A DNA stretch of 64,000 nucleotides from contig BDTD01000007.1 in the NCBI GenBank assembly GCA_002897635.1, positions 16,907 to 80,906 on the forward strand, given 5' to 3'. The translations under genes were made by a program, and so were the position numbers. The notes under the pieces are model-generated. The model was not told the DNA's origin and did no database searches. It worked only from the letters and a program-made list of their open reading frames with translations. This document shows positions 17,607 to 63,528 of the stretch, piece after piece (the stretch's first letter is position 1; every line of letters begins with the position of its first letter). The DNA comes from a bacterium BMS3Abin11. GTDB lineage: Bacteria > Pseudomonadota > Gammaproteobacteria > BMS3Bbin11.

Positions 17607-17873
17607 AAGGGAACCTCTGATCAATTATGCCATGCCTCTGCGAGACCTGAAGCGTGCAGCTACAAAGCGTGCTTCGCAGCGAATGGCCCGGTCCTTTGCA
17701 AGAAGCACAATACCGTAGATGTGCGCTTCAGGCCTCGCCCTGCGGGGCTTACTGTCTGATTCACACTCTGCGTTGTCACTTTTCACCAGGCCCAGGCATG
17801 CCTTCAAAGTTCCGCCTTGATTGTGAATCAGACTGTAAGCCAGAGGTATGGCATAATTGATCAGAGGTTCCCA
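17607..17873. repeat. Repeat family 1, variant copy A: 267 bp element with AAGGGAACCTCTGATCAATT terminal inverted repeats and a nested-palindrome interior unrelated to the family-1 core
   Basis: Terminal inverted repeats match family-1 copies at 25024 and 43509. Internal inverted pairs: ATGCCATGCCTCTG/CAGAGGTATGGCAT and GAGACCTGAAGCG/GCGCTTCAGGCCTC. Confidence 0.7.
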
Positions 17874-18634: not shown

Positions 18635-18676
18635 TAAGGGCACCTCTATTCATGAATTAATAGAGGTACCCTTAAA
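18635..18676. repeat. Solo family-1 palindrome: two terminal inverted repeats abutting, with no interior (TTAAGGGCACCTCTATTCATGAATTAATAGAGGTACCCTTAA)
   Basis: Same terminal inverted repeat as the family-1 elements. Located in the pirin / LysR divergent promoter region. Confidence 0.7.
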
Positions 18677-25023: not shown

Positions 25024-25188
25024 TGGGAACCTCTGATAAATTCTGGACGAAGTACATTAACGCCTAAAATATCCAGGTTTGAGGCGCAAATCGCACGTAA
25101 TAGCTAGCAATTGCGAAGGTTTTCAGCGAAAAAACTGGTTATTTTAGGCGTGAGATACGAGTTCACGAATTAATCAGAGGCTCCCTTA
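25024..25188. repeat. Family-1 MITE-like element, subfamily b (copy C), 165 bp; fills the purL-bamC spacer
   Basis: Terminal inverted repeats GGGAACCTCTGATAAATTCTGGA / GAATTAATCAGAGGCTCCC, core AATCGCACGTAATAGCTAGCAATTGCGAAGG, and inner inverted pair CGCCTAAAATA/TATTTTAGGCG. The right terminal inverted repeat ends in the bamC stop codon. Confidence 0.8.
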
Positions 25189-27447: not shown

Positions 27448-27660
27448 AACAAAAAAGGAGAATAATAAAGAGAAAACTATTTCTTAGGGAAAATCTGATT
27501 TATTTGAAGAAACCCGTTATTGCACCCTACGGGTATTTCCTCAGCTACTTCTGTTGCGAGCACCAAAACGCGGCAAGCTCTCTATCTATGTTAAGAAACA
27601 GTCGTTTAGAGATTGCTACGTCACTACATTTCTCGCAATGACGAATAAATCAGAGATTCT

Positions 27661-27830
27661 CCAGGAGTCTGTCGGACTTAGGTAGTCGTAGCGAGCATGG
27701 TGGGAGAACGAGGACAAATGATCATGATTTTGAGGTGCATAGTGAGCCTACGCAGCGAAAAATCAGGGACATTTGTCCTCGTTCTCCCATCAGCGCAGTA
27801 GATTATCCCTAAGCCCGACAGACTCCTAAG
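27661..27830. repeat. Roughly 170 bp long imperfect palindrome (arms about 60 bp) of unknown nature
   Basis: Outer arms AGGAGTCTGTCGG(A/G)CTTAGG and inner arms GGGAGAACGAGGACAAATG / CATTTGTCCTCGTTCTCCC, read directly from the sequence. Confidence 0.7.
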
Positions 27831-31596: not shown

Positions 31597-31679
31597 CACC
31601 TCTATAGAGTCTTAAGGGTGCCCACTATTAATTCTGGATATGTCAAATTGATATTCATGAATTTATAGAGGTGCCCTCT
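31597..31679. repeat. Truncated family-1 element (copy D): terminal inverted repeats bracket a short 30 bp interior that lacks the core
   Basis: AAGGGTGCCCACTATTAATTCTGGATATG ... CATGAATTTATAGAGGTGCCCTC. Confidence 0.65.
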
Positions 31680-32772: not shown

Positions 32773-33280
32773 TATTAGTCACTTCTGCCAAAACCCTCCG
32801 CCACAGCTCAAGTTTCTCATCAAAGCACATCGCTGCATAAGCTGGGCTGGTTGATGGCAATCTCTGGTAAAATTGACCGTATTGCTGAATCTCTTCCAGG
32901 CTAAGGACGTGTTTTTTATACAATCGTTCTGCCGCACTGCCATTAAAAAAGACCGCTTTAATCGATCTGTGAGCTGAAAATAAATGGACGAAATCATTCG
33001 CCTGCTCAGAAGTGGTCTCGATACTCGAATCCAGACTACCCACCCTTTTACACATTTTTAAAACATCCCAGATACCCAGGCCACAAGCTGTCAGCATAGT
33101 ACAGCGTTCATCATAGTTGCTGCCCCGCTCAATACCGAATAATCCTTCCATAATCGTCCAGAATACATTTCGAGGGTGCGCATAATATTGCTGCTTCTGT
33201 AGTGAAGCGACACCCGGCATGGAACCCAGTATCAGGATTCTACAGTTCTTTTTTGCTACCGGATCAAAGCTTTTTATCAT
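32753..33280 (-). CDS. DNA-deoxyinosine glycosylase (hypoxanthine-DNA glycosylase, UDG family 6)
   Basis: ILILGSMPGVASL ... YAHPRNVFW motifs of HDG-type UDG-fold proteins. Confidence 0.7.
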   Translation of the reverse strand: MIKSFDPVAKKNCRILILGSMPGVASLQKQQYYAHPRNVFWTIMEGLFGIERGSNYDERCTMLTACGLGIWDVLKMCKRVGSLDSSIETTSEQANDFVHLFSAHRSIKAVFFNGSAAERLYKKHVLSLEEIQQYGQFYQRLPSTSPAYAAMCFDEKLELWRRVLAEVTNRQRTKD

Positions 33281-34434
33281 GCATCTCTCGCCAGGCGCAA
33301 GCCGGCAAACACATGGCGTTTTTCAGGCTGGTAGAAATTACGGAAGGATGGCTGGCTGACAGACTCTCCTGAATATGGACTGCGGCCTTTTAGCATGTAA
33401 TGATCATCATCAAACCAGGGGCTTGAATAACGCTCATAAGGGAAAGCCCTGAAGCCTTCATAAGGAAAAAAGGTATTGGCACACCACTCCCATACCTTGC
33501 CGGTCGTATGCATGAGCGCTGGATCGGCTTTCATGGCAGCCTCCCATTCATGTTCATGCGGTAATCGATAACCAGCATAACGAGCAAAGGCATCGGCTTC
33601 ATACCAGCTAAGTCCCGACACGGCTGCATCGGGATCAATATCAGAAAACCCCTCCTTGCTCAGTGCGCACCAGTTTCCCGAGACATCATCCAGCCAATAT
33701 TCAGGCGCACGGATTTTAGAGTCCGTTATCCATTGCCAGCCTGCCCTGTTCCAGAAACTCTCATATTGATATCCAGCGGCCTGCATAAAACCCAGGTACT
33801 CTGCGTTACTAACCGGTTTCTCAGCAATCTGAAAAGTGGAGAGTCTTACTTCATGAACCGGTTGTTCGTTATCACAGGCCAGTACATCACTGGAGCCGAC
33901 TTCGTATATGCCTTCAGCAAAAGATGCTGCTGGCGACACGGGTTCCAGTGCATTAAACTTTTTGGTCATTAAATTTGTTGCAGACTCTGTTTTCAATGCT
34001 TTCTGATACAATGCCATCTGCATGGTTTCCAGATGTTGCTGCCCGTGCTGCAGCAGAAACCAGGCTATATAGTCATTTTCAAGCAGAGGATGCTTTTGTT
34101 GGCTGGATAATAGATCAAACGATAAATTTTCCGCATCAGAAAAGTTATTTTTCAGTTTTGAAAAGTCAGTAATGCCCGGCAGCTTTCCACGTTCAGACTT
34201 ATCAATCATTTCCGGAAAATAATACTGATGCAAATCTGCAGTCCTGCTGTTGTCACCAAGCACGGCTTCCCGCAACCAGTACTGTTCGATAAATGCAATA
34301 TGCGCAAGATGCCAGCCTAACGGACTGAGATCAGGATGGTACTGAATACGTAGTTCATCCACAGAACAGGAGGAAAACTGTTTTATCAGCCGATCATGCA
34401 AAGACGATAGTCGATCTATACTAAGCCGAACCAT
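33277..34434 (-). CDS. egtB: EgtB-family sulfoxide synthase (DinB_2 plus FGE-sulfatase domains); ergothioneine biosynthesis
   Basis: DinB-like His triad region (LGWHLAHIAFIEQYW) and a C-terminal FGE-sulfatase fold (WEWCANTFFPYEGF...). The first 5 codons lie inside a MITE terminal inverted repeat. Confidence 0.7.
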   Translation of the reverse strand: MVRLSIDRLSSLHDRLIKQFSSCSVDELRIQYHPDLSPLGWHLAHIAFIEQYWLREAVLGDNSRTADLHQYYFPEMIDKSERGKLPGITDFSKLKNNFSDAENLSFDLLSSQQKHPLLENDYIAWFLLQHGQQHLETMQMALYQKALKTESATNLMTKKFNALEPVSPAASFAEGIYEVGSSDVLACDNEQPVHEVRLSTFQIAEKPVSNAEYLGFMQAAGYQYESFWNRAGWQWITDSKIRAPEYWLDDVSGNWCALSKEGFSDIDPDAAVSGLSWYEADAFARYAGYRLPHEHEWEAAMKADPALMHTTGKVWEWCANTFFPYEGFRAFPYERYSSPWFDDDHYMLKGRSPYSGESVSQPSFRNFYQPEKRHVFAGLRLARDA

Positions 34435-34683
34435 GATTAGGCGACACTCAGCTTCTCTGTGCCTTGTTCACGGCAAGGCATCGGAACGCCACTGTAGCCA
34501 TTCTACAGTAAGTTTCGATAACGAAGTCCGTGAAATGGCACAGAGAAGCCCGTAGGGAGGATCCAAAATGATCCAGCTCTGCGTTACGACTCTTGATAAG
34601 GGAATAACCATTATCTGCGAGTCGTGTCTTAATCTGAATCATTTTGGGTCCTCTGAGTGTCGCCTAATCATGGTTCGGCTTAG
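34421..34683. mobile_element. 263 bp MITE-like element with perfect 31 bp terminal inverted repeats (CTAAGCCGAACCATGATTAGGCGACACTCAG), possibly with TA target-site duplication
   Basis: Left terminal inverted repeat at 34421-34451 and right at 34653-34683 are exact reverse complements. Inner inverted pair CTTCTCTGTGCC/GGCACAGAGAAG. Flanked by TA on both sides. No coding capacity. Confidence 0.75.
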
Positions 34684-34695
34684 TAAGTACTTTAT

Positions 34696-35475
34696 TCATA
34701 AATGGATTTTTTCCGGCTCATTACAGGCATCAAAAATCATTAATGACTGAGCTGCTACTTCTGTCCAGTCATCATCATCTGTCAACGGCTCAGAAGCGAC
34801 AAGGCTTCCGCCAGGGAAAAGCGGTGGATTTACCGAATAATATAATGAAGGACAGTTACCATTGATTGCACATCGCAAGGCCCAGACTTTTCCGGGTATA
34901 GCGATGATAATATTCAATAGACCCCGTTCATCCTTTAACCATCTTTTTAGGCGGGCAACCAGTTCAATCAAAACAGAAGCCGGATCATTACTACCAGTTT
35001 CCCACATGATCTGCTTGAATAGAATAAACAGGTGCTCTGAATCGGTATTGCCTTCAATCAAATCTTCAAACTCAGGCTTAAATTCACGCCGCAGACATGA
35101 CCTTAAAGTCCGGGAAAATTGATTTATGTAACCATTGTGCATGAAATGATACTTTTCATCCGCATAGGGCATGGTGTTGGCAAGATTAATCGGGATATTC
35201 GTAGTCGCGCTACGCACTACTGCTACCCATGTTTTAGATTCAAGCCCGCGACCAAGTTCTGGAAGGTTCGGATCCGTCCAGATAGGCATGGTCTGGCGAT
35301 ATCGCAATGGTTTGCCAAGCTGATCGAACCAGCCAAAGCCGTAGCCATCTGCATTCAGCCTGGCTTCCATCATTTCTCTTGGTGCCCATGACTGTTTCAC
35401 CAGACTATGCTCCGGCTTGAGTAGTAATTCTTCAAGTCGCAAAGCTGGGCCAATATAAGCTGCAAGTCTGCACAT
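34696..35475 (-). CDS. egtC: Class II glutamine amidotransferase-like amidohydrolase EgtC
   Basis: N-terminal Cys2 (MCRLAAYIGP) Ntn-hydrolase signature. Positioned between egtD and egtB. Confidence 0.75.
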   Translation of the reverse strand: MCRLAAYIGPALRLEELLLKPEHSLVKQSWAPREMMEARLNADGYGFGWFDQLGKPLRYRQTMPIWTDPNLPELGRGLESKTWVAVVRSATTNIPINLANTMPYADEKYHFMHNGYINQFSRTLRSCLRREFKPEFEDLIEGNTDSEHLFILFKQIMWETGSNDPASVLIELVARLKRWLKDERGLLNIIIAIPGKVWALRCAINGNCPSLYYSVNPPLFPGGSLVASEPLTDDDDWTEVAAQSLMIFDACNEPEKIHL

Positions 35476-35625
35476 AATATTTTCAGGTAGTAAGGGTATC
35501 TCTATTTACTCATGAATAATCATATTGAATCCAGAACCTGTCATATCCAGAACTAATAAAAGCCCCCTGTTGTTTATAACAGGTCACTAAGTATAATGAA
35601 AAAAATTTAAAAACAAAGGAAAGCT

Positions 35626-36636
35626 ATGCAGGAAACAGCAGAATTAGACACAGGGCGATTCCAGTTAAACCGGTTGTCTTCAGACCAACACCTGAACTCT
35701 CTCGCTGAGGATGTTCGTCATGGACTGATGTCAGTGCCTCGGACACTGCCACCAAAATACTTCTATGACGAACGTGGCTCAAAACTATTTGATCATATAT
35801 GCCAGACAGAAGAGTATTATCTGACGCGCGCAGAATCGACCCTCCTGAAAAGACATGCTGATGAAATCATTGCAACAACACGTCCCAATGCCATTGTTGA
35901 ATATGGTAGTGGTACATCAGAAAAAACGGAAATCCTCATTCAGGCGGCTAACCTGCAATATGACTGGTTACACTACCTACCACTGGATGTTTGTGAAGAA
36001 ATTCTTGTTGAGGCGGCCGATCGTCTGATTGAAAGATTTCCCGCGTTATCTATTGATGCCTGGCATGGCGACTTCGTTGATGGCATGGATCATTTTAAAA
36101 ATGACCATGAACGTAGCCTCTATACATTTCTTGGCAGCTCACTGGGTAACCATTCTGAAAAAGAAGCAATAGGATTTCTCTGCAATGTAAGGAATACCAT
36201 TAAAGATAGCGACTGGTTTCTTCTAGGTGTTGATATGGTCAAGGATCATGCCATTTTAAATGCTGCCTATAATGACAGCAGGGGCTATACAGCAGAATTC
36301 AACCTGAACTTACTCAATGTTCTTAACCAGGCGCTTGATGGCGACTTTAACAAAAAAAAGTTTAAGCACCATGCCTTTTTCGATACTGAAAATTCCCGTA
36401 TCGAAATGCGACTGCAATCCTGTTGCCAGCAGGCCGTGACGCTTCGTGATATAGATCTGAAAATTGAATTTGAAGAAGGAGAGCATATCGTAACGGAGTA
36501 CAGTCGCAAATATACGGCCGATTCTATACAGCAATTATTAAGCAAAGCAGGATTCAAACCACAGAACATCTATACCGGCAATAACAATGAATTTATGTTG
36601 ATTCTTTCTAGTTGTTCAAAAGCAGATAAAGGATGA
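35626..36636 (+). CDS. egtD: L-histidine N-alpha-methyltransferase EgtD
   Basis: YFYDERGSKLFDHICQTEEYYLTRAE ... GSGTSEKT motifs of the EgtD methyltransferase family. Confidence 0.85.
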   Translation: MQETAELDTGRFQLNRLSSDQHLNSLAEDVRHGLMSVPRTLPPKYFYDERGSKLFDHICQTEEYYLTRAESTLLKRHADEIIATTRPNAIVEYGSGTSEKTEILIQAANLQYDWLHYLPLDVCEEILVEAADRLIERFPALSIDAWHGDFVDGMDHFKNDHERSLYTFLGSSLGNHSEKEAIGFLCNVRNTIKDSDWFLLGVDMVKDHAILNAAYNDSRGYTAEFNLNLLNVLNQALDGDFNKKKFKHHAFFDTENSRIEMRLQSCCQQAVTLRDIDLKIEFEEGEHIVTEYSRKYTADSIQQLLSKAGFKPQNIYTGNNNEFMLILSSCSKADKG

Positions 36637-37994: not shown

Positions 37995-38260
37995 AAGTTC
38001 CAAGATCCAGGTTCCAAGTTCCAAGTTCCAAGTAAAGGTCAAAAGCTATTAACCACAGAGGACACGGAGGTACACAGAGGAAAAAATTCTACAGATTTAA
38101 TAAACATACTAAGCATCAGCGCTATCGCTTAGTTTCAGCTCATATCTGTGGCCGAAATATATAGCAACTGAAAACCTCTGTGCACCTCCGTGTCCTCTGT
38201 GGTAAATGCTTTTAGTCTTTAGATTTTAGCTTGGAACTTGGAACCTGGATCTTGGAACTC
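37995..38260. repeat. Composite repeat: an octamer array (GTTCCAAG x4.5), then a family-2 BIME-like element (29 bp CACAGAGGA arms flanking 94 bp), then a reverse octamer array (CTTGGAAC x4)
   Basis: ACCACAGAGGACACGGAGGTACACAGAGG at 38052-38080, and its reverse complement CCTCTGTGCACCTCCGTGTCCTCTGTGGT at 38175-38203. Confidence 0.85.
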
Positions 38261-38279
38261 TATCTTTTTAACCCCATAT
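38251..38279 (+). promoter_or_regulatory. Candidate sigma-32 (RpoH) heat-shock promoter for clpB: -35 CTTGGAA, 14 bp spacer, -10 CCCCATAT
   Basis: Matches the sigma-32 consensus CTTGAAA-N13-15-CCCCATNT. Sits 37 bp upstream of the clpB ATG. The -35 box is the last unit of the octamer array. Confidence 0.5.
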
Positions 38280-40895: not shown

Positions 40896-40956
40896 CTAAC
40901 TATTGATAAAAAAGCTATTAACCGCGGAGGGCACAGTGGCCCCGAGAAGTAAAAAT

Positions 40957-43508: not shown

Positions 43509-43672
43509 TAAGGAACCTCTGATTAATTCTGGACGAAGTAGATTGCGACTAAAATATTCAGGTTTAAGGCGCAAATCGCACGTAATAGCTAGCTATTGCG
43601 AAGGTTTGCAACGAAAAAACTGGATATTTTAGGCGTGAGATACGAGTCCACGAATTGATCAGAGGTTCCCTA
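43509..43672. repeat. Family-1 MITE-like element, subfamily b (copy E), 164 bp
   Basis: AAGGAACCTCTGATTAATTCTGGACGAAG ... core AATCGCACGTAATAGCTAGCTATTGCGAAGG ... CGAATTGATCAGAGGTTCCC. The right terminal inverted repeat AGAGGT sits 6 nt before the ATG of the next gene and acts as its Shine-Dalgarno sequence. Confidence 0.8.
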
Positions 43673-46247: not shown

Positions 46248-46419
46248 ATGCCCTTTAAGGGCGTCTCTATTAATTCTGGATAGATCAGATTGTATTCCAA
46301 CTCGTTCATATCAAGGCAAGGATCGCACGTAATAGCTAGCTATTGCGAAGATTCTTAACGCAGAGAGGGACGAGTTGGGATGGAAGATGAATATTCATGG
46401 ATTAATAGAGGCGCCCTTT
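46248..46419. repeat. Family-1 MITE-like element, subfamily a (copy F), 172 bp
   Basis: AAGGGCGTCTCTATTAATTCTGGATAG ... CATATCAAGGCAAGGATCGCACGTAATAGCTAGCTATTGCGAAGATTCTTAACGCAGAGAG ... CATGGATTAATAGAGGCGCCCTT. The right terminal inverted repeat encodes the last 8 codons and the stop of rluD. The element's internal ATG opens a 28-codon ORF that overlaps the pgeF start. Confidence 0.85.
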
Positions 46420-47399
46420 TTGTCATCTCTAAGTACATCTACCAGCAACTGCATATCTGCTGGCATAGGCACCGTCCAGCTCAGCAATTCACCACTGACA
46501 GGGTGATGCAAAGCCAGTGTTTCAGCATGTAGAGCCTGTCTCCGGAAACCACGCAGGGTATTTAGCAGCTGTCCGGAAGATGCCGGCGGCACATGCAGGC
46601 GTTTTCCGTAGACTGGATCGCCGGCGATAGGATGACCCTGCCAGTTCATGTGGACACGGATTTGATGTGTACGGCCGGTTTCAAGTGTCACCCTGACCAG
46701 GGTATGGGCACGGAACTTCTCTTCTACCCGGTAATGCGTCACGGCCGGTTTGCCACGGTTGTTTACGGCCATTTTTGTACGTTCACGGCTATGCCGGCCA
46801 ATCGGGGCGTCAATCGTTCCGCCTGCCACAATCTGAGAAACGATCACCGCCAGATATTCACGTCTAACCTGCTTCTCCTGTATTGCTTCAACAAGGGCCT
46901 TTACCGCCTTTTCATTACGCGCTATTACCAGCAGGCCCGTCGTTTCTTTGTCAATTCGATGTACAATTCCGGCCCGTGGCAGCACCGCCAGCGATTCGTC
47001 GAAGTGCAACAGGGCATTTAGCAGTGTGCCATCAGGGTTACCCGTTCCCGGATGTACGACCAGACCCGCCGGCTTGTTGATGACAAGAATATCTTCATCC
47101 TGGTAGACCATATCCAGAGGAATATCCTGAGCCTGAGAGTCAGTCGCTACCGGTGCAGGCACATGAATCACTACAGCCTGCCCTTCCCTTACCTTCGTTT
47201 TTTGCCCTTCAGCTTTCCCGTCCAGGGTCACCCGCCCATCTTTTATCCAGTGCTGAATTGCCGAACGGGAATATTGGCCGAACAGGGTCGCTAATGCTTT
47301 ATCGAGACGAAAACCGTTACATAATTCAGGGATTATCCCCTGTAACAGGGTTTCTTCACATTGATGAAGCACTAGATTCGGGTTATCCTTCGGTTCCAT
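46395..47399 (-). CDS. rluD: 23S rRNA pseudouridine(1911/1915/1917) synthase RluD
   Basis: S4 domain plus RluA-family catalytic motif HRIDKETTGLLVIA. Confidence 0.92.
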   Translation of the reverse strand: MEPKDNPNLVLHQCEETLLQGIIPELCNGFRLDKALATLFGQYSRSAIQHWIKDGRVTLDGKAEGQKTKVREGQAVVIHVPAPVATDSQAQDIPLDMVYQDEDILVINKPAGLVVHPGTGNPDGTLLNALLHFDESLAVLPRAGIVHRIDKETTGLLVIARNEKAVKALVEAIQEKQVRREYLAVIVSQIVAGGTIDAPIGRHSRERTKMAVNNRGKPAVTHYRVEEKFRAHTLVRVTLETGRTHQIRVHMNWQGHPIAGDPVYGKRLHVPPASSGQLLNTLRGFRRQALHAETLALHHPVSGELLSWTVPMPADMQLLVDVLRDDKKGASINP

Positions 47400-48936: not shown

Positions 48937-50611
48937 TCGTTAACACGTGCCGCATATAAGCTGAAGTAATGGGATAGCGCCGATCTCTGCCGAAAGCTCT
49001 TTTTGTTATTCGCACTCCGGGCGCAGCCTGTTTGCGTTTATATTCATTCAGATCTACCAGGTAAAGAACCTTTCGCACCGTGTTGCGATCAAAGCCTTTC
49101 GCCACGATTTCTTCAAGTCCACAATCATCTTCTATATACATTTCAAGAATAGCATCAAGAATTTCATATACCGGTAGTGAATCTTCATCCTTCTGATCAT
49201 CAGCCAGTTCAGCACTCGGCGGCCGGTCTATCACGCGCTGCGGGATTACCTGCGACTGACTATTACGCCAGTTTGCCAGCTCATAGACCAGCATCTTCGG
49301 TACATCTTTGATCACTGCATACCCCCCCGCCATGTCACCATAAAGGGTGGCATAACCAACTGCCATTTCACTTTTATTGCCGGTGGTCAACACAATGCGA
49401 CCCTGTTTGTTGGATATGGCCATCAATATAATTCCTCGACAGCGAGCCTGAATGTTCTCTTCGGTGGTATCGACTGCTGCTGCGGCAAAAGTCTCCTTAA
49501 GACCGTCAAGAAATGCCATAAACATCGGTTCGATAGTGATGGTCTGGTAATGCACACCGAGTACCCCGGCCTGCTCCCTGGCATCCTCAATACTCATGGA
49601 CTGGGTATAGCGCGAAGGCATAAGTACAGCCTTAACATTCTCCGCGCCTAGTGCATCACTGGCAATGACCAGTGTCAGTGCGGAATCGACACCGCCCGAC
49701 AGTCCGATTACCGCCCCCTTGAAGCCATTTTTTAATGCATAGTCACGCACACCAAGCACAAGTGCCCGGTATACATTTTCAATTCGGGGTAAATCAGGAG
49801 CAAGTACTGACGGCTCTGGCTGTAAACCTTTATCAGCGCAGGTAATTTCAATCAACGAAAGATCTTCTAAAAACACCGGTGCCTGCAGAACACGTGCACC
49901 GCTGGCATCAACAACAAAAGAACCACCATCAAAAACCAGTTCATCCTGACCGCCAACCATATTGACATAGACCACAGGCACAGAATTTAATCGTGCCTGC
50001 TCTGCAACCACTGTTATACGTTCAGCCCGCTTGTCCATATGATATGGTGACGCGTTGAGATTAAGAATAAGCTTCGCACCGGCCTGAACTGCCTGCCTGG
50101 CAGGGCCATCCTGCCAGATGTCCTCACAAATGGTGACACCGATCTTTCCTGCATATGTTTCCACTATGCAAGGGCTGCCACCCGCAGTGAAATACCGTTT
50201 TTCATCGAAAACGCCGAAATTAGGCAGGCTCTGTTTGTCATAACGCGCTATCTGCACACCATCTTTAATTATTACGGCAGAGTTATACAAACAGTCTTCT
50301 TCCTGCATCGGACAACCGATAATAGCCGTGATGCCATGCACATGTCTGCAAAGCTCATCCAGCACTTTACGGGTATCAGCGATAAAGCCATGACGCAACA
50401 ATAGATCTTCAGGTGGATAGCCCGTCAGGTTAAGCTCAGGGAAAAGAATAATATCTGCACCCAGTTCATCCCTGGCCCGCACCACCCACTGCAGTATTTT
50501 GTCAGCATTCCCCTGCAGATCTCCAACCAGACAGTCATGCTGAGCGAGGGCAATTTTCAAGGACGCCCCGGTTGATACTGGATGATCAGATTGTGATTCA
50601 AAACCAGTCAT
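48923..50611 (-). CDS. nadE: Glutamine-dependent NAD+ synthetase (nitrilase-like domain plus NAD synthase domain)
   Basis: N-terminal CN-hydrolase domain and C-terminal SGGVDS PP-loop. The first roughly 17 codons of the track ORF lie inside repeat copy G. The true start may be the TTG at 50559, giving (M)KIALAQ. Confidence 0.9.
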   Translation of the reverse strand: MTGFESQSDHPVSTGASLKIALAQHDCLVGDLQGNADKILQWVVRARDELGADIILFPELNLTGYPPEDLLLRHGFIADTRKVLDELCRHVHGITAIIGCPMQEEDCLYNSAVIIKDGVQIARYDKQSLPNFGVFDEKRYFTAGGSPCIVETYAGKIGVTICEDIWQDGPARQAVQAGAKLILNLNASPYHMDKRAERITVVAEQARLNSVPVVYVNMVGGQDELVFDGGSFVVDASGARVLQAPVFLEDLSLIEITCADKGLQPEPSVLAPDLPRIENVYRALVLGVRDYALKNGFKGAVIGLSGGVDSALTLVIASDALGAENVKAVLMPSRYTQSMSIEDAREQAGVLGVHYQTITIEPMFMAFLDGLKETFAAAAVDTTEENIQARCRGIILMAISNKQGRIVLTTGNKSEMAVGYATLYGDMAGGYAVIKDVPKMLVYELANWRNSQSQVIPQRVIDRPPSAELADDQKDEDSLPVYEILDAILEMYIEDDCGLEEIVAKGFDRNTVRKVLYLVDLNEYKRKQAAPGVRITKRAFGRDRRYPITSAYMRHVLTNDTH

Positions 50612-50773
50612 ATCAAGACAAGGATCGCACGGCCGCTCATTGACATCCTGTCACTGCGGCACTTGTACATCCCTGTACGTCGTAATAGCTGGCTATTGCG
50701 AAGATTCTTAACGCAGAGATGGCTGGTTTTGAATTCAAGATGATTATTCATGTATTAATCGGGGCGCCCTTCA
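50558..50773. repeat. Family-1 MITE-like element, subfamily a (copy G), with a degenerate left terminal inverted repeat and a roughly 50 bp insertion inside the core
   Basis: CTGGATGATCAGATTGTGATTCAAAACCAGTCATATCAAGACAAGGATCGCACG-[insertion]-TCGTAATAGCTGGCTATTGCGAAGATTCTTAACGCAGAGATGG ... CATGTATTAATCGGGGCGCCCTT. Confidence 0.75.
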
Positions 50774-50880
50774 AGTTTGTTTCATCATTTATCAGTGATT
50801 TAAAATAACAATCAGATGATACACTGCTGGTCAGCTTTTCTCAGCAGAGAAGATAGGGGTGAATTTTATTTTAGGATCAA

Positions 50881-51012
50881 AAGCTATACACCACAGAGGT
50901 CACAGAGGAAAGAAAAATATTTGGCTGCAAACCATGCACAACAACCTTAATCCTCTTTCTGCTTCATACTGGAAGTGATTCATGCATTCCAATTTTAACC
51001 TCTGTGTCCTTT
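50881..51012. repeat. Family-2 BIME-like element, shorter arms (ACCACAGAGGTCACAGAGG ... CCTCTGTGTCC), interior about 90 bp
   Basis: Preceded by the AAAAGCTATACACC leader shared with the copy at 38041. Directly follows family-1 copy G. Confidence 0.7.
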
Positions 51013-51266
51013 ATGGCGAAAAATGATGTTAAAAAATGCAAACTGAAGTCCACAATTCTCTGCTCGATATTTCACCTGACGAATGGGACACGTTGAACCA
51101 TGATAACAACCCTTCCATCAGTTATGCCTTTCTCAGTACCCTCGAGGAATCAGCGAGTACAGGTGGGAGAAAAGCGCATGTTACTCATTATCAACAAATA
51201 TTAAATAAATATAGCCCTTTTCGAAATGACACCAAAAATGACTAACCAGTTGATATACTGTTACTC

Positions 51267-51970: not shown

Positions 51971-52134
51971 AAGGGCACCTCTATTAATTCATGGATATTC
52001 ATCTCACATCCAAAATCGTCCATCTCTGCGTTAAGAATCTTCGCAATAGCTGGCTATTACGTGCGATCCTTGCCTTGATATGAACGATTTTGGATGCAAT
52101 CTAATCTATCCATAATTAATAGAGGTACCCTTAA
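51971..52134. repeat. Family-1 MITE-like element, subfamily a (copy H), reverse orientation; fills the aat-bpt spacer
   Basis: AAGGGCACCTCTATTAATTCATGG ... TCTCTGCGTTAAGAATCTTCGCAATAGCTGGCTATTACGTGCGATCCTTGCCTTGATATG ... CCATAATTAATAGAGGTACCCTT. Confidence 0.85.
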
Positions 52135-52848: not shown

Positions 52849-53091
52849 GGATGAAAGGGGAAAGGGGAAAGGGGAAAGTTCCAAGTTCCAAGATCCAAGC
52901 AAATTCAAAGCCTCATATCACTGAGGTACATGGTTTTGACTTGGAACTTGGAACTTGGAACTTGGATCTTGGAACTTGGAACTTGGATCTTGGAACCTGG
53001 AACCTGGAACCTGGAACCTGGAACTTGGAACTTGGATCTTGGAACTTGGATCTTGGAACTACAGCACCCCGTGTCCTCTGTGGTTAAAATG
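52849..53091. repeat. Tandem repeat block: (GAAAGGGG)x3, (GTTCCAAG)x3, a 40 bp spacer, (CTTGGAAC-like octamer) x about 15, then half of a family-2 terminal inverted repeat (CCCCGTGTCCTCTGTGG)
   Basis: Period-8 array at 52940-53060 with CTTGGAAC/CTTGGATC/CTGGAACC variants. All overlapping six-frame ORFs are low-complexity LGTWNLDLGTWNL-type artefacts. Confidence 0.9.
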
Positions 53092-53229
53092 TACATGGAT
53101 TCATTAAAATTGCTTTTAAATACCAAATTATCGCCTAAAATTGAATATGAGCGTATTCAGACCTTTACCCCTGACTCCTGTTGGTGCATCATACGCGCCC
53201 ATATTTTCATTTAAAGAGACCTGGTTGCT

Positions 53230-56052: not shown

Positions 56053-56096
56053 CCTTGTCTCCATTATTTTCAACTGTGAAAGTCAAAAGACTTTTT

Positions 56097-56243
56097 ACCA
56101 CAGAGGACACGGAGGACACAGAGGTTTTTTATTATTGTGTACCCGTTGCTTCGTTAAATTTGGTGTCAGACGAGGACTTCGATGGTTGTTTATTACTTCT
56201 AGAAGATTTTCCTTTCCTCTGTGTCCTCTGTGTCCTCTGTGGT
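56097..56243. repeat. Family-2 BIME-like element in the radC / coaBC divergent intergenic region
   Basis: ACCACAGAGGACACGGAGGACACAGAGG at 56097-56124 and CCTCTGTGTCCTCTGTGTCCTCTGTGGT at about 56216-56243, bracketing 90 bp. Flanking leader and trailer motifs (GTCAAAAG..., ...TTTAGATTTTGATC) are shared with the copy at 38035-38230. Confidence 0.85.
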
Positions 56244-56314
56244 GAAAACCTTTAGATTTTGATCTTTCACTCATTTTATCGAAGTACAACCCCTTTCTGC
56301 GCTAAAATAACGCC

Positions 56315-62348: not shown

Positions 62349-63419
62349 TCAGGAACCTAGCCACGCAAGAATGTTTTCAGTAATCTGTCTTTCCATTTCT
62401 GCAAGGTTATTTATACTACCAGTAACCACACCACCGGATGCCTGCACCTTCCCGTTCTGCTCAAAAATTCCCCATGTCAGTCTTACATGCTCTGCATTTT
62501 GCTGGAAACTGAAAACAAGCCTGAAGGCAGAACTACTGCCATACTTTTTGTCAGCATTTGTGTCGGGTTTTGATGCACCCTTAACAGGAAGAAGATTTAC
62601 ACCAGCTATCGAATTTACGCTCGTTTGTATTCGCCTGGCCATGTCGCTGAGTTCTTTGCCGAATCCACCACTGGAAAAATCCCTGATCTCAGTAACTTCA
62701 ATATACCGAGTCTCAATTTCAGGCTTACTACTTGCGAACATTAAAAACAGTATTGTGGCTACCACCAACAATGGAATTTCAACAACAGGAGATATAATAG
62801 TTACATTTAAGTTGTCCAGATATTCGGTCTTCAGATACTCAAGTAAAAATCCCTGACGCCTGAGGAAAGCCTGTTTCTCTTCATATAGATAAAATACTGG
62901 CACTGTATCGGATAAAAAGCCCAGATCATGCCTGCCCAGTGGATAGGCATATACTGGAAAGTCCGGAGTAATTTCATCAATAATGGTTTTGCTGACGCAT
63001 AGCCCATCTGCACGACCTAAAGATTGAAGACAGGTAGCAGCTGCCAGTGAAAGCTGTTGCTGGCTTTCTTTTTCTCCCTGTTTACTGGAGGAGTGAATAC
63101 CGATTCGCGCAGTTATGCCTGGTTCTTCGGATGAAAGATTCCATGCATTGAGGGCTTCCTGTATGGCAAAACCAGCCTTTACTGCAGATTTGCAGGTTCT
63201 GAAGCTTGCTGAAATCGCATCACCGGTAAATTCAATCCCAAAACCAACTGCTTTTTCGATGATGGGTACCAGTATGGACTGGAAGGTTTCATAAAGATCA
63301 ACCCCTTTACGCTGATCTTTCTGCATGATCAGCGAAGAGCCGACTATATCAGCTACCATATAGGTTAAGGGCATCTCTATTAGTTCTGGATAGTTCAGGT
63401 TTGATTCAAAAGTTGTCAT
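62349..63419 (-). CDS. Membrane-anchored class III nucleotidyl cyclase-like protein, subunit A: metal-binding Asp pair present, Asn/Arg motif absent
   Basis: VADIVGSSLI (first metal Asp), EFTGDAISASF (second metal Asp) and ARIGIHSS. The region homologous to GxxVNxASRL reads GLCVSKTII, so Asn and Arg are lost. One TM segment and a C-terminal domain paralogous to subunit B. The first 20 codons of the track ORF derive from repeat copy I; the likely true start is the Met at 63359 (MVADIVGSS...). Confidence 0.6.
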   Translation of the reverse strand: MTTFESNLNYPELIEMPLTYMVADIVGSSLIMQKDQRKGVDLYETFQSILVPIIEKAVGFGIEFTGDAISASFRTCKSAVKAGFAIQEALNAWNLSSEEPGITARIGIHSSSKQGEKESQQQLSLAAATCLQSLGRADGLCVSKTIIDEITPDFPVYAYPLGRHDLGFLSDTVPVFYLYEEKQAFLRRQGFLLEYLKTEYLDNLNVTIISPVVEIPLLVVATILFLMFASSKPEIETRYIEVTEIRDFSSGGFGKELSDMARRIQTSVNSIAGVNLLPVKGASKPDTNADKKYGSSSAFRLVFSFQQNAEHVRLTWGIFEQNGKVQASGGVVTGSINNLAEMERQITENILAWLGS

Positions 63420-63528
63420 ATCAAGGCAAGGATCGCACGTAATAGCTAGTTATTGCGAAGATTCTTAACGCAGAGATGGCAGCTTTTGGATTGAACATGA
63501 GTATTCATGAATTAATAGAGGTGCCCTT
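63366..63528. repeat. Family-1 MITE-like element, subfamily a (copy I), 163 bp; the best-preserved copy, fills the parC-cyclase spacer
   Basis: AAGGGCATCTCTATTAGTTCTGGATAG ... CATATCAAGGCAAGGATCGCACGTAATAGCTAGTTATTGCGAAGATTCTTAACGCAGAGATGG ... CATGAATTAATAGAGGTGCCCTT. Confidence 0.9.

Follow-up and report, generated by a model that had tools for sequence, protein, structure and literature searches.

The 64-kb stretch of contig BDTD01000007.1 of bacterium BMS3Abin11 analysed here, referred to below as the window, carries a set of dispersed repeats lodged between genes and at gene ends. The copy at the centre of this study lies at the junction of rluD and pgeF. The repeats form a family of non-coding miniature transposons (MITEs, miniature transposable elements bounded by inverted repeats) of about 158 nt that have been recently mobile. 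The contig comes from an ENA metagenome assembly. The surrounding gene content is gammaproteobacterial, with BamC/NlpB, single-chain PurL, aat, bpt, infA, rluD-pgeF beside bamD, relA/spoT and dksA, and the closest named homologues of the window's proteins belong to Arenicellales and to unclassified gammaproteobacterial metagenome-assembled genomes (MAGs).

Copies and boundaries

An earlier reading of the window from its letters alone (the sequence-only reading) had listed six full copies of the repeat. All six are real. R1, a covariance model built mostly from copies of other genomes and used here to score those of the window, gives 138-169 bits to five of them and 112 bits to the sixth, with their ends corrected (Table 1). 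The variant, the truncated copy and the remnant made of terminal repeats that the same reading had described were likewise confirmed by sequence and by the covariance model. Its division into two subfamilies, a and b, also holds, and both recur in many other genomes. For the rluD-pgeF copy, the interval first proposed, 46248-46419, does contain the element, but its left end was set a little too far out: 46248-46254 (ATGCCCT) is host sequence, which relatives also have at their empty site, and 46255-46258 is the flank copy.

A repeat search of the window groups the copies into families D2-D6, and the shared ends and core can be seen in the sequences at the coordinates of Table 1. When copies are measured from the GG(G) at one end to the (C)CC at the other, the 60 well-delimited ones have a modal length of 158-160 nt; no copy is protein-coding.

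Table 1. Features of the repeat family and of a second MITE in the window. Bit scores are those of R1; model positions refer to R1.
Feature	Positions	Strand	Remarks
Full MITE copy, subfamily a, central to this study	46259-46416	+ (strongly folding strand)	155 bits; in last rluD codons, upstream of pgeF, both genes on -
Left 4-nt flank copy of target, TTAA	46255-46258		relatives hold a single CTAA at the empty site
Right 4-nt flank copy of target, decayed, TTTT on +	46417-46420		junction alignment
Left terminal inverted repeat, basal helix arm GGGCGTCTCTATTAATTCTGGAT	46259-46281	+	helix 1, 23 pairs, 17 with compensatory changes
Right terminal inverted repeat, opposite arm of basal helix	46393-46416	+	
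Inner hairpin module, ~97 nt	46289-46385	+	model positions 32-128; loops tandem GA/GA, UCAAGGC opposite AACGCAGA, GCA opposite AA
Apical stem-loop CGTAATAG-CTAG-CTATTGCG (palindromic core of the sequence-only reading)	46328-46347	+	helix 4
Full copy, subfamily b, between purL and bamC	25026-25184	+	138 bits; neighbours by Pfam
Full copy, subfamily b, between DUF748 gene and AAA_33 gene	43512-43669	+	169 bits; CTAA on both flanks
Full copy, subfamily a, upstream of nadE	50561-50769	+	112 bits; extra 49-nt segment at 50632-50680 inside upper loop
Full copy, subfamily a, between aat and bpt	51973-52130	-	158 bits on -; sole window copy folding on -
Full copy, subfamily a	63369-63526	+	149 bits
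Internally deleted copy, both ends kept	31616-31676	+	27.6 bits over model positions 1-159, interior missing
Remnant, terminal repeats only	18638-18671		sequence and covariance model
Variant with 32-nt terminal repeats of the same type as the central copy and two module-like hairpins in opposite orientations	17607-17873	+	17640-17738 (+) and 17746-17841 (-); 38 and 28 bits on positions 32-128
Second MITE family, 265 nt	34420-34684	-	32-bp perfect terminal repeat ACTAAGCCGAACC... (ACTAAGCCGAACCATGATTAGGCGACACTCAG), TA flanks

Target duplication and empty sites

The four outer bases are identical on both sides in 30 of the 60 delimited copies. These matched flanks are TTAA in 18 copies, TCAA and TTCA in 4 each, and TTGA, GTAA, ATAT and TATA in 1 each; in a control that set left flanks against right flanks taken from other copies, 17% of the pairings were identical. 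Non-palindromic direct repeats (TCAA, TTCA, TTGA, GTAA) account for 10 of the 30 matched pairs, and in 0 of the 60 copies are non-palindromic flanks reverse-complementary to each other. This pattern identifies the matched bases as a 4-bp target duplication and not as an extension of the terminal repeat. Two copies within one genome (locus L113; loci of other genomes bear L numbers) carry different matched flanks, TTCA/TTCA and TCAA/TCAA.

Relatives preserve the sites as they stand without the element. In L122, L123 and L124 (PgeF identity 78-86%), the rluD and pgeF genes either overlap or are separated by 5 nt and no element is present, whereas in the window the element has pushed the two genes apart. 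Alignment of the junction places the window's 158 nt plus one extra 4-mer at the single CTAA of L123, with host sequence matching perfectly on both sides. The element supplants the last few rluD codons (46395-46420), and the open reading frame (ORF) of the window's RluD ends at a TGA inside the terminal repeat. The DUF748/AAA_33 junction, occupied in the window by 43512-43669, is empty in L122 and L123, where the genes are 12-16 nt apart. The aat-bpt junction, the site of 51973-52130, is filled in L245 (98% amino acid identity) and empty in L246 and L248 (91% and 83%). Three of the window's insertion sites are vacant in relatives, and the insertions are of species age.

Elsewhere, recent bursts are indicated by near-identical copies within one Thiotrichaceae MAG (L024, L034, L088 and L108). 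At L066:7556-8000 and L095:2871-3190 two or three copies stand in tandem with spacers of 3-4 nt, which fits re-insertion into TTAA regenerated at the copy ends.

As the sequence-only reading had stated, the window encodes no transposase: Pfam scans of its large ORFs found no transposase domain. The copies would be moved in trans by a DDE transposase making 4-bp staggered cuts, which we take to be of the IS5, IS701 or IS1182 style, a family assignment that goes by the length of the duplication.

Two side observations concern these sites. In L247 (84% identity), the aat-bpt spacer is 111 nt long (L247:2390-2500) and ends in ...CTATAGGTACCCATATG, resembling a decayed right element end; this site may have received an insertion long ago or independently. 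The nadE-aat interval of L246-L248 holds an intact FemAB-like/Acetyltransf_6 gene of ~380 amino acids, of which the window (50770-51266) and L245 retain a ~69-amino-acid fragment; in the window this gene loss is adjacent to the copy at 50561-50769.

A covarying hairpin along the whole element

The structure of the element was examined in an alignment of 57 copies (A1), collected with a core search pattern and folded with RNAalifold. The consensus fold is a single unbranched rod of 62 pairs. A check for compensatory substitutions, which the sequence-only reading had proposed, found compensatory double changes at 44 of the 62. Helix 1, formed by the terminal ends, comprises 23 pairs and is 96.5% paired across the 57 copies. 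With the structure fixed, 95.6% of the cells are paired, against 79% in column shuffles and ~40% with slid partners. Cells changed on both sides number 605 against 189 expected, and 0 of 500 shuffles attained the observed value.

The loops are invariant while the stems vary. One is a symmetric GA/GA (tandem G·A); in another UCAAGGC faces AACGCAGA, and in a third GCA faces AA. G·U accounts for 11% of pair cells, and some positions carry GU, UG and Watson-Crick pairs at similar frequency. A high G·U share, tandem G·A and purine-rich asymmetric loops are, in our view, typical of RNA helices.

The consensus apex is CGUAAUAG-CYRG-CUAUUGCG, with a loop that frequently reads CUGG or CCAG, neither of which is palindromic. 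The invariance of the apex within A1 is an artefact of the search pattern used for collecting the copies. In copies outside that pattern the apical stem is kept by compensating changes, as CCAAUAG/CUAUUGG in L066 and as GAUAAUGG/CCCUUAUC at 34557-34653 of the window. Because the stem is compensated in such divergent copies, the apex is a stem-loop and not a duplex operator. The core that had been taken for a dimeric DNA-binding palindrome is therefore the tip of a strand-specific hairpin.

Strand specificity is pronounced. Over all pairs and all sequences, G·T occurs 398 times and A·C 43 times, numbers that would swap on the opposite strand. The mean fold energy is -78.5 kcal/mol for the sense and -53.6 kcal/mol for the antisense strand, the sense strand being the stronger in 57 of 57 copies (Wilcoxon p = 5e-11). 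For the alignment as a whole the fold energy is -86 with the aligned strand and -32 with its complement, and the covariance model gives 130-170 bits for sense and 40-70 bits for antisense. For the copy at 46259-46416, the RNA fold reaches -81 kcal/mol (z -11.6) on the + strand against -44.5 (z -5.1) on the - strand; with DNA energy parameters its sense strand folds at -31.7 kcal/mol (z -6.9). Such a strand asymmetry, like the retention of asymmetric loops, would not be seen in a neutral palindrome or in one homogenised from arm to arm. Its one-strand hairpin fold goes beyond what plain cut-and-paste transposition explains.

With its terminal repeats, 4-bp duplications, empty sites and covarying hairpin, the family is what the sequence-only reading had supposed, a mobilised, highly structured, non-autonomous MITE. 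Of the features that define MITEs, small size (under ~300 bp) without coding capacity, terminal inverted repeats, a target duplication and dispersed copies that are present or absent between relatives were all observed; a cognate insertion sequence with the same ends was looked for in the window and ~1 Mb of related loci and not found there.

An inner module shared with other elements

The inner part of the hairpin recurs outside the 158-nt family. A second MITE in the window (34420-34684) has terminal repeats unrelated to those of the first, and it contains the same inner module at 34557-34653 on the - strand (52 bits, E ~1e-9, model positions 32-128). This second MITE is found again at L030:1766-2030, in another, phylum-level MAG, and its TA flanks suggest an IS630-type partner. 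Two further module-bearing hairpins occur in L026. One structured module is thus carried by shells that imply different transposases.

The ~97-nt inner hairpin, with its conserved loops and variable apical stem, may be an undescribed, widespread structured RNA or single-stranded DNA module that several unrelated MITEs need in order to propagate, for example as a site at which a protein of the host or the transposon binds the folded strand; we offer this tentatively, at somewhat less than even odds. If the module is needed for propagation, these elements would be structure-dependent mobile elements and not passive deletion derivatives of insertion sequences.

The second MITE also holds a second, unrelated hairpin.

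Distribution and database comparisons

The family is not confined to this locus, as it would be after a local duplication. A scan for the core CGTAATAGCYRGYWATTGCGAAG over 185,579 species-representative genomes returned at least 120 stretches, and at least 45 species-level genomes carry the core among the loci listed (L002-L080). Carriers are mainly marine, sediment or symbiotic Gammaproteobacteria. They include Sedimenticola (among them the culture-collection strain S. selenatireducens DSM 17993), symbionts of tubeworms (Endoriftia and those of Escarpia and Lamellibrachia) and Ca. Thiodiazotropha, as well as Thiotrichaceae/Thiotrichales, Chromatiales, Arenicellales, Competibacteraceae, Xanthomonadales/Lysobacterales and many unclassified marine MAGs. 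Full copies were also seen in two bins labelled as non-proteobacterial, L067 (Rhodothermales, 78-kb contig) and L028 (Anaerolineae, 4-kb contig); these may reflect horizontal transfer or mis-binning.

The sequence-only reading could not assign the repeat to a named family, and the database comparisons bear this out. The whole window gave 0 matches to Rfam release 15 at gathering thresholds, and a permissive Rfam scan returned sub-threshold plant or animal miRNA-precursor hairpins only (for example MIR2630, 41 bits against a threshold of 144). In a plasmid collection, BLAST searches with the element and the 17607 variant found no match besides one chance 32-nt hit, and the exact core had 0 matches in IMG/VR viral contigs. 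The core and terminal-repeat sequences had no match in the searchable full-text literature, where keyword searching gave general MITE literature only.

Two sets of candidate resemblances were set aside. A loose module pattern matched viral contigs 120 times, and the stem complementarity of these matches is random, as expected of chance. Comparison by eye with an IHF site, a kink-turn, a XerCD dif-like core, hammerhead motifs and a 10-nt 23S rRNA identity gave no fit beyond chance.

Orientation relative to genes and replication

In four subfamily-a copies of the window, the same end faces the start codon of the downstream gene, and the sequence-only reading had taken this orientation to be constant. 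It holds for those four and fails as a rule: across genomes, copies between co-directional genes have the folding strand antisense in 37 cases and sense in 17 (~68% antisense), and further copies lie in convergent (14) and divergent (17) spacers. Proximity to start codons arises because copies land in operon spacers a few bases long or in gene ends.

The folding strand is also biased with respect to base composition. It is the C-rich strand in 70 of 103 loci, and in 82% of those where the skew is strong. With the coding-strand effect removed, the C-rich bias amounts to 41 of 60 (p = 5.5e-4), and all 5 copies whose folding strand is sense to the adjacent genes show it; skew estimates from 8-kb loci are noisy and these numbers small, and a transcription-linked bias and a replication-linked one are not fully separable. 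In the window, where the + strand is uniformly C-rich and genes are divided ~50:50 by strand, 5 of 6 copies fold on +.

What may read the fold

The insertions are young and unconserved at orthologous sites. The fold would thus be kept by selection on the propagating lineage and not by a host function at each locus, and we infer that something in propagation or tolerance reads the folded single strand.

An RNA-level role is possible, and we favour, at slightly below even odds (about 0.45), the reading that the functional form is a structured RNA; the RNA-like features of the helices described above speak for it. Sense transcription of a copy would yield a long, nearly perfect hairpin RNA. Binding would take place at the conserved loops of this RNA, and its processing would be that of double-stranded RNA, in the manner of RNase III on the long hairpin transcripts of Correia elements (PMC10969869). 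Sense insertions inside operons would be counter-selected, leaving an excess of antisense copies.

Several observations weigh against an RNA as the functional form. A consensus scan found no sigma-70-like promoter inside the copies at 43512-43669 and 46259-46416, a weak test confined to two copies, and the internal promoter suspected by the sequence-only reading gains no support from it. The folding strand is absent from host mRNA in two thirds of the copies between co-directional genes; sense RNA by read-through is unlikely for most of them. No autonomous partner, that is, a terminal-repeat pair enclosing a transposase, was found in the window and ~1 Mb of related loci, where distant terminal-repeat pairs enclose housekeeping genes such as bioA, rsmE and lepA and solo repeats abut host genes. 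The orientation bias, moreover, tracks replication-associated GC skew (41/60; 5/5 sense copies), which fits a DNA-level process at least as well.

The strongest competing explanation, which we consider rather unlikely, keeps the same MITE and takes the selected fold to be a single-stranded DNA hairpin formed on unwinding at replication. Folded back with its terminal repeats paired in cis, the strand would be a substrate or cofactor of excision and amplification, or simply the form selected for stability. Copies with the strong strand on the lagging-strand template would be lost or moved, leaving an excess on the C-rich strand, which would be the leading-strand template. The C-rich-strand bias described above, before and after correction, among sense copies and in the window, argues for this explanation, as does the significance of the fold with DNA parameters. 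Conservation at the level of propagation and not of the locus is likewise consistent with it, and a module common to shells that imply different transposases would suit a general DNA-level process. However, G·T at 11% of pairs and near-fixed wobbles are, as we see it, less expected in DNA helices selected for stability. Conserved asymmetric loops require a specific reader, and we know of no loop reader for DDE transposition. The leading-strand template is also the less exposed strand, and the noise of the 8-kb skew estimates and the small numbers, noted above, apply here too.

Considerably less likely, and already disfavoured, is an ordinary MITE with a functionless hairpin, in which arm symmetry would be a by-product of origin or of arm-to-arm conversion and the conservation of sequence would be a mark of recent horizontal spread. 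Hairpins over the whole length are common among MITEs (PMC10969869), and the youth of the copies at their sites and the recent bursts are in line with this account. It leaves unexplained, however, the 9:1 excess of G·T over A·C, the strand difference of 25 kcal/mol in 57 of 57 copies, the invariance of asymmetric loops when 44 of 62 stem pairs vary, and the recurrence of the module in shells whose terminal repeats are unrelated.

It is very improbable that the family is of the REP/BIME or IS200/IS605 type, moved as single-stranded DNA by a Y1 (HUH) transposase with the left TTAA as target and the right TTAA as a cleavage site belonging to the element. Such elements typically show a strand-specific hairpin and a replication-strand bias, and an empty site with a single tetranucleotide would also be expected. 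Non-consensus flanks nevertheless match copy by copy (TCAA/TCAA, TTCA/TTCA), even for the two copies of L113 whose flanks differ from each other, which indicates duplication; a whole-length hairpin with 23-bp terminal repeats is unlike REP units of 20-40 nt or subterminal hairpins; and Pfam scans found no Y1 gene in the window.

Least credible of all is a duplex DNA regulatory cassette, a promoter or an operator with a dimer-binding palindromic core held in fixed orientation at start codons, since the constant facing of 4 of 4 window subfamily-a copies and the near-palindromic core are outweighed by an orientation of only 68:32 across genomes with copies in convergent and divergent spacers too, by the lack of a promoter-like site in the two scanned copies, by an apical loop CYRG that is often non-palindromic (CTGG or CCAG) on a stem that covaries in divergent copies, by conserved asymmetric loops that differ between the arms and that a symmetric dimer site would not keep, and by sites that are empty in relatives with the same operons.

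Comparison with known repeat systems

Correia elements (CREE/NEMIS) duplicate TA and are known from Neisseria only. Like the window family they are MITEs, of ~100-160 bp, with terminal inverted repeats, and are abundant in short spacers beside genes. The window family differs in its 4-bp TTAA-like duplication, in its gammaproteobacterial hosts from many orders and in its whole-length, strand-specific rod with invariant loops, and no sequence similarity was seen.

ERIC/IRU elements of Enterobacteriaceae and Vibrio exert orientation-dependent effects on mRNA that involve RNase E (PMC10969869). They share with the window family a whole-length imperfect palindrome (~127-160 bp), a cross-genus distribution and an intergenic location within transcription units. 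Their sequence, ends and host range differ. We know of no reported ERIC module common to shells with different terminal repeats. In its working, the window family would be closest to the Correia and ERIC hairpin transcripts within operons; by this comparison it is probably a member of neither, given its different duplication, sequence and hosts.

MITEs derived from IS5, IS701, IS1182 and IS630, the bacterial counterparts of Tourist and Stowaway in plants, resemble the window elements in combining terminal repeats with a short AT-rich duplication (4 bp, or TA for 34420-34684) and in being hairpin-forming, non-coding and, presumably, mobilised in trans. In contrast to them, no parent insertion sequence with these ends was found in the window and ~1 Mb of loci, and the interior does not look like what a deletion would leave of an insertion sequence but is a structured module under conservation.

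The sequence-only reading had suggested kinship with REP/BIME. These RAYT-associated repeats are also dispersed extragenic palindromes that fold on one strand and form tandem clusters, as in L066 and L095. REP units, however, are 20-40 nt long without terminal repeats or duplications; with 158 nt, 23-bp terminal inverted repeats and 4-bp duplications, the window family is not a member.

Integron attC sites function through a one-strand DNA fold with conserved unpaired bases, and their orientation is biased relative to replication. Unlike the window family, they are no transposons and lack terminal repeats and duplications, and they are poorly conserved in sequence and stand in cassette arrays beside an integrase; the analogy extends to the single-stranded DNA explanation only.

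The family is unusual in its breadth (at least 45 species in several orders), in its RNA-like covariation and strand asymmetry over the whole length, and in a module common to shells with different ends. MITEs are usually seen as passive shells in which the terminal repeats alone matter; here, and in a second family with other ends, a strand-specific fold with invariant loops persists across at least 45 species though the insertions are young. If the fold acts as RNA, it would be a candidate new RNA family, absent from Rfam and residing in mobile DNA, with possible effects on how operons are expressed in sediment bacteria and sulfur-oxidising symbionts. If it acts as DNA, the fold-back model of how MITEs amplify would gain evidence from bacterial genomes. 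In practical terms, copies break assemblies, alter gene ends (here the C-terminus of RluD), part genes that overlap in relatives and mark recent strain-level differences. As one carrier, S. selenatireducens DSM 17993, is a culture-collection strain, experiments should be feasible.

Variant copies and other repeats in the window

The 49-nt segment inside the copy upstream of nadE (50632-50680) consists of two small hairpins between ATCGCACG and CGTAATAGC. The same segment is found at the same position in an Arenicellales MAG copy (L043), and a further copy of that MAG (L060) likely has it as well, judged from an equal extent of 209 nt. It could be an expansion passed on by descent or else a very small nested element. 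Copies L093 and L115 hold other inserts. In the variant at 17607-17873, the second hairpin retains the lower UCAAGGCG/CAACGCAGAG loop only. Within 27641-27827, a solo terminal-repeat-like sequence (27641-27660) is adjoined by a hairpin of ~160 nt that scores weakly, at 35 bits; a decayed relative and an unrelated palindrome are both conceivable.

Another dispersed hairpin family occurs at 37997-38272, 52878-53101 and 56086-56260, and also at 40910-40956 and 50879-50925, with long inverted arms containing ACCACAGAGGACACGGAGG. Tandem heptamer arrays, (GTTCCAA)n ... (TTGGAAC)n, border some of its copies. Heptamer repeats had raised the possibility of a cyanobacterial (Nezha-like) MITE, which was ruled out by the gammaproteobacterial genes BamC, single-chain PurL, aat and bpt. 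Genes resembling those of ergothioneine biosynthesis, at 33277-36636, flank the second MITE; they encode DinB_2/FGE-sulfatase (EgtB-like), GATase_4 (EgtC-like) and Methyltransf_33 (EgtD-like) proteins.

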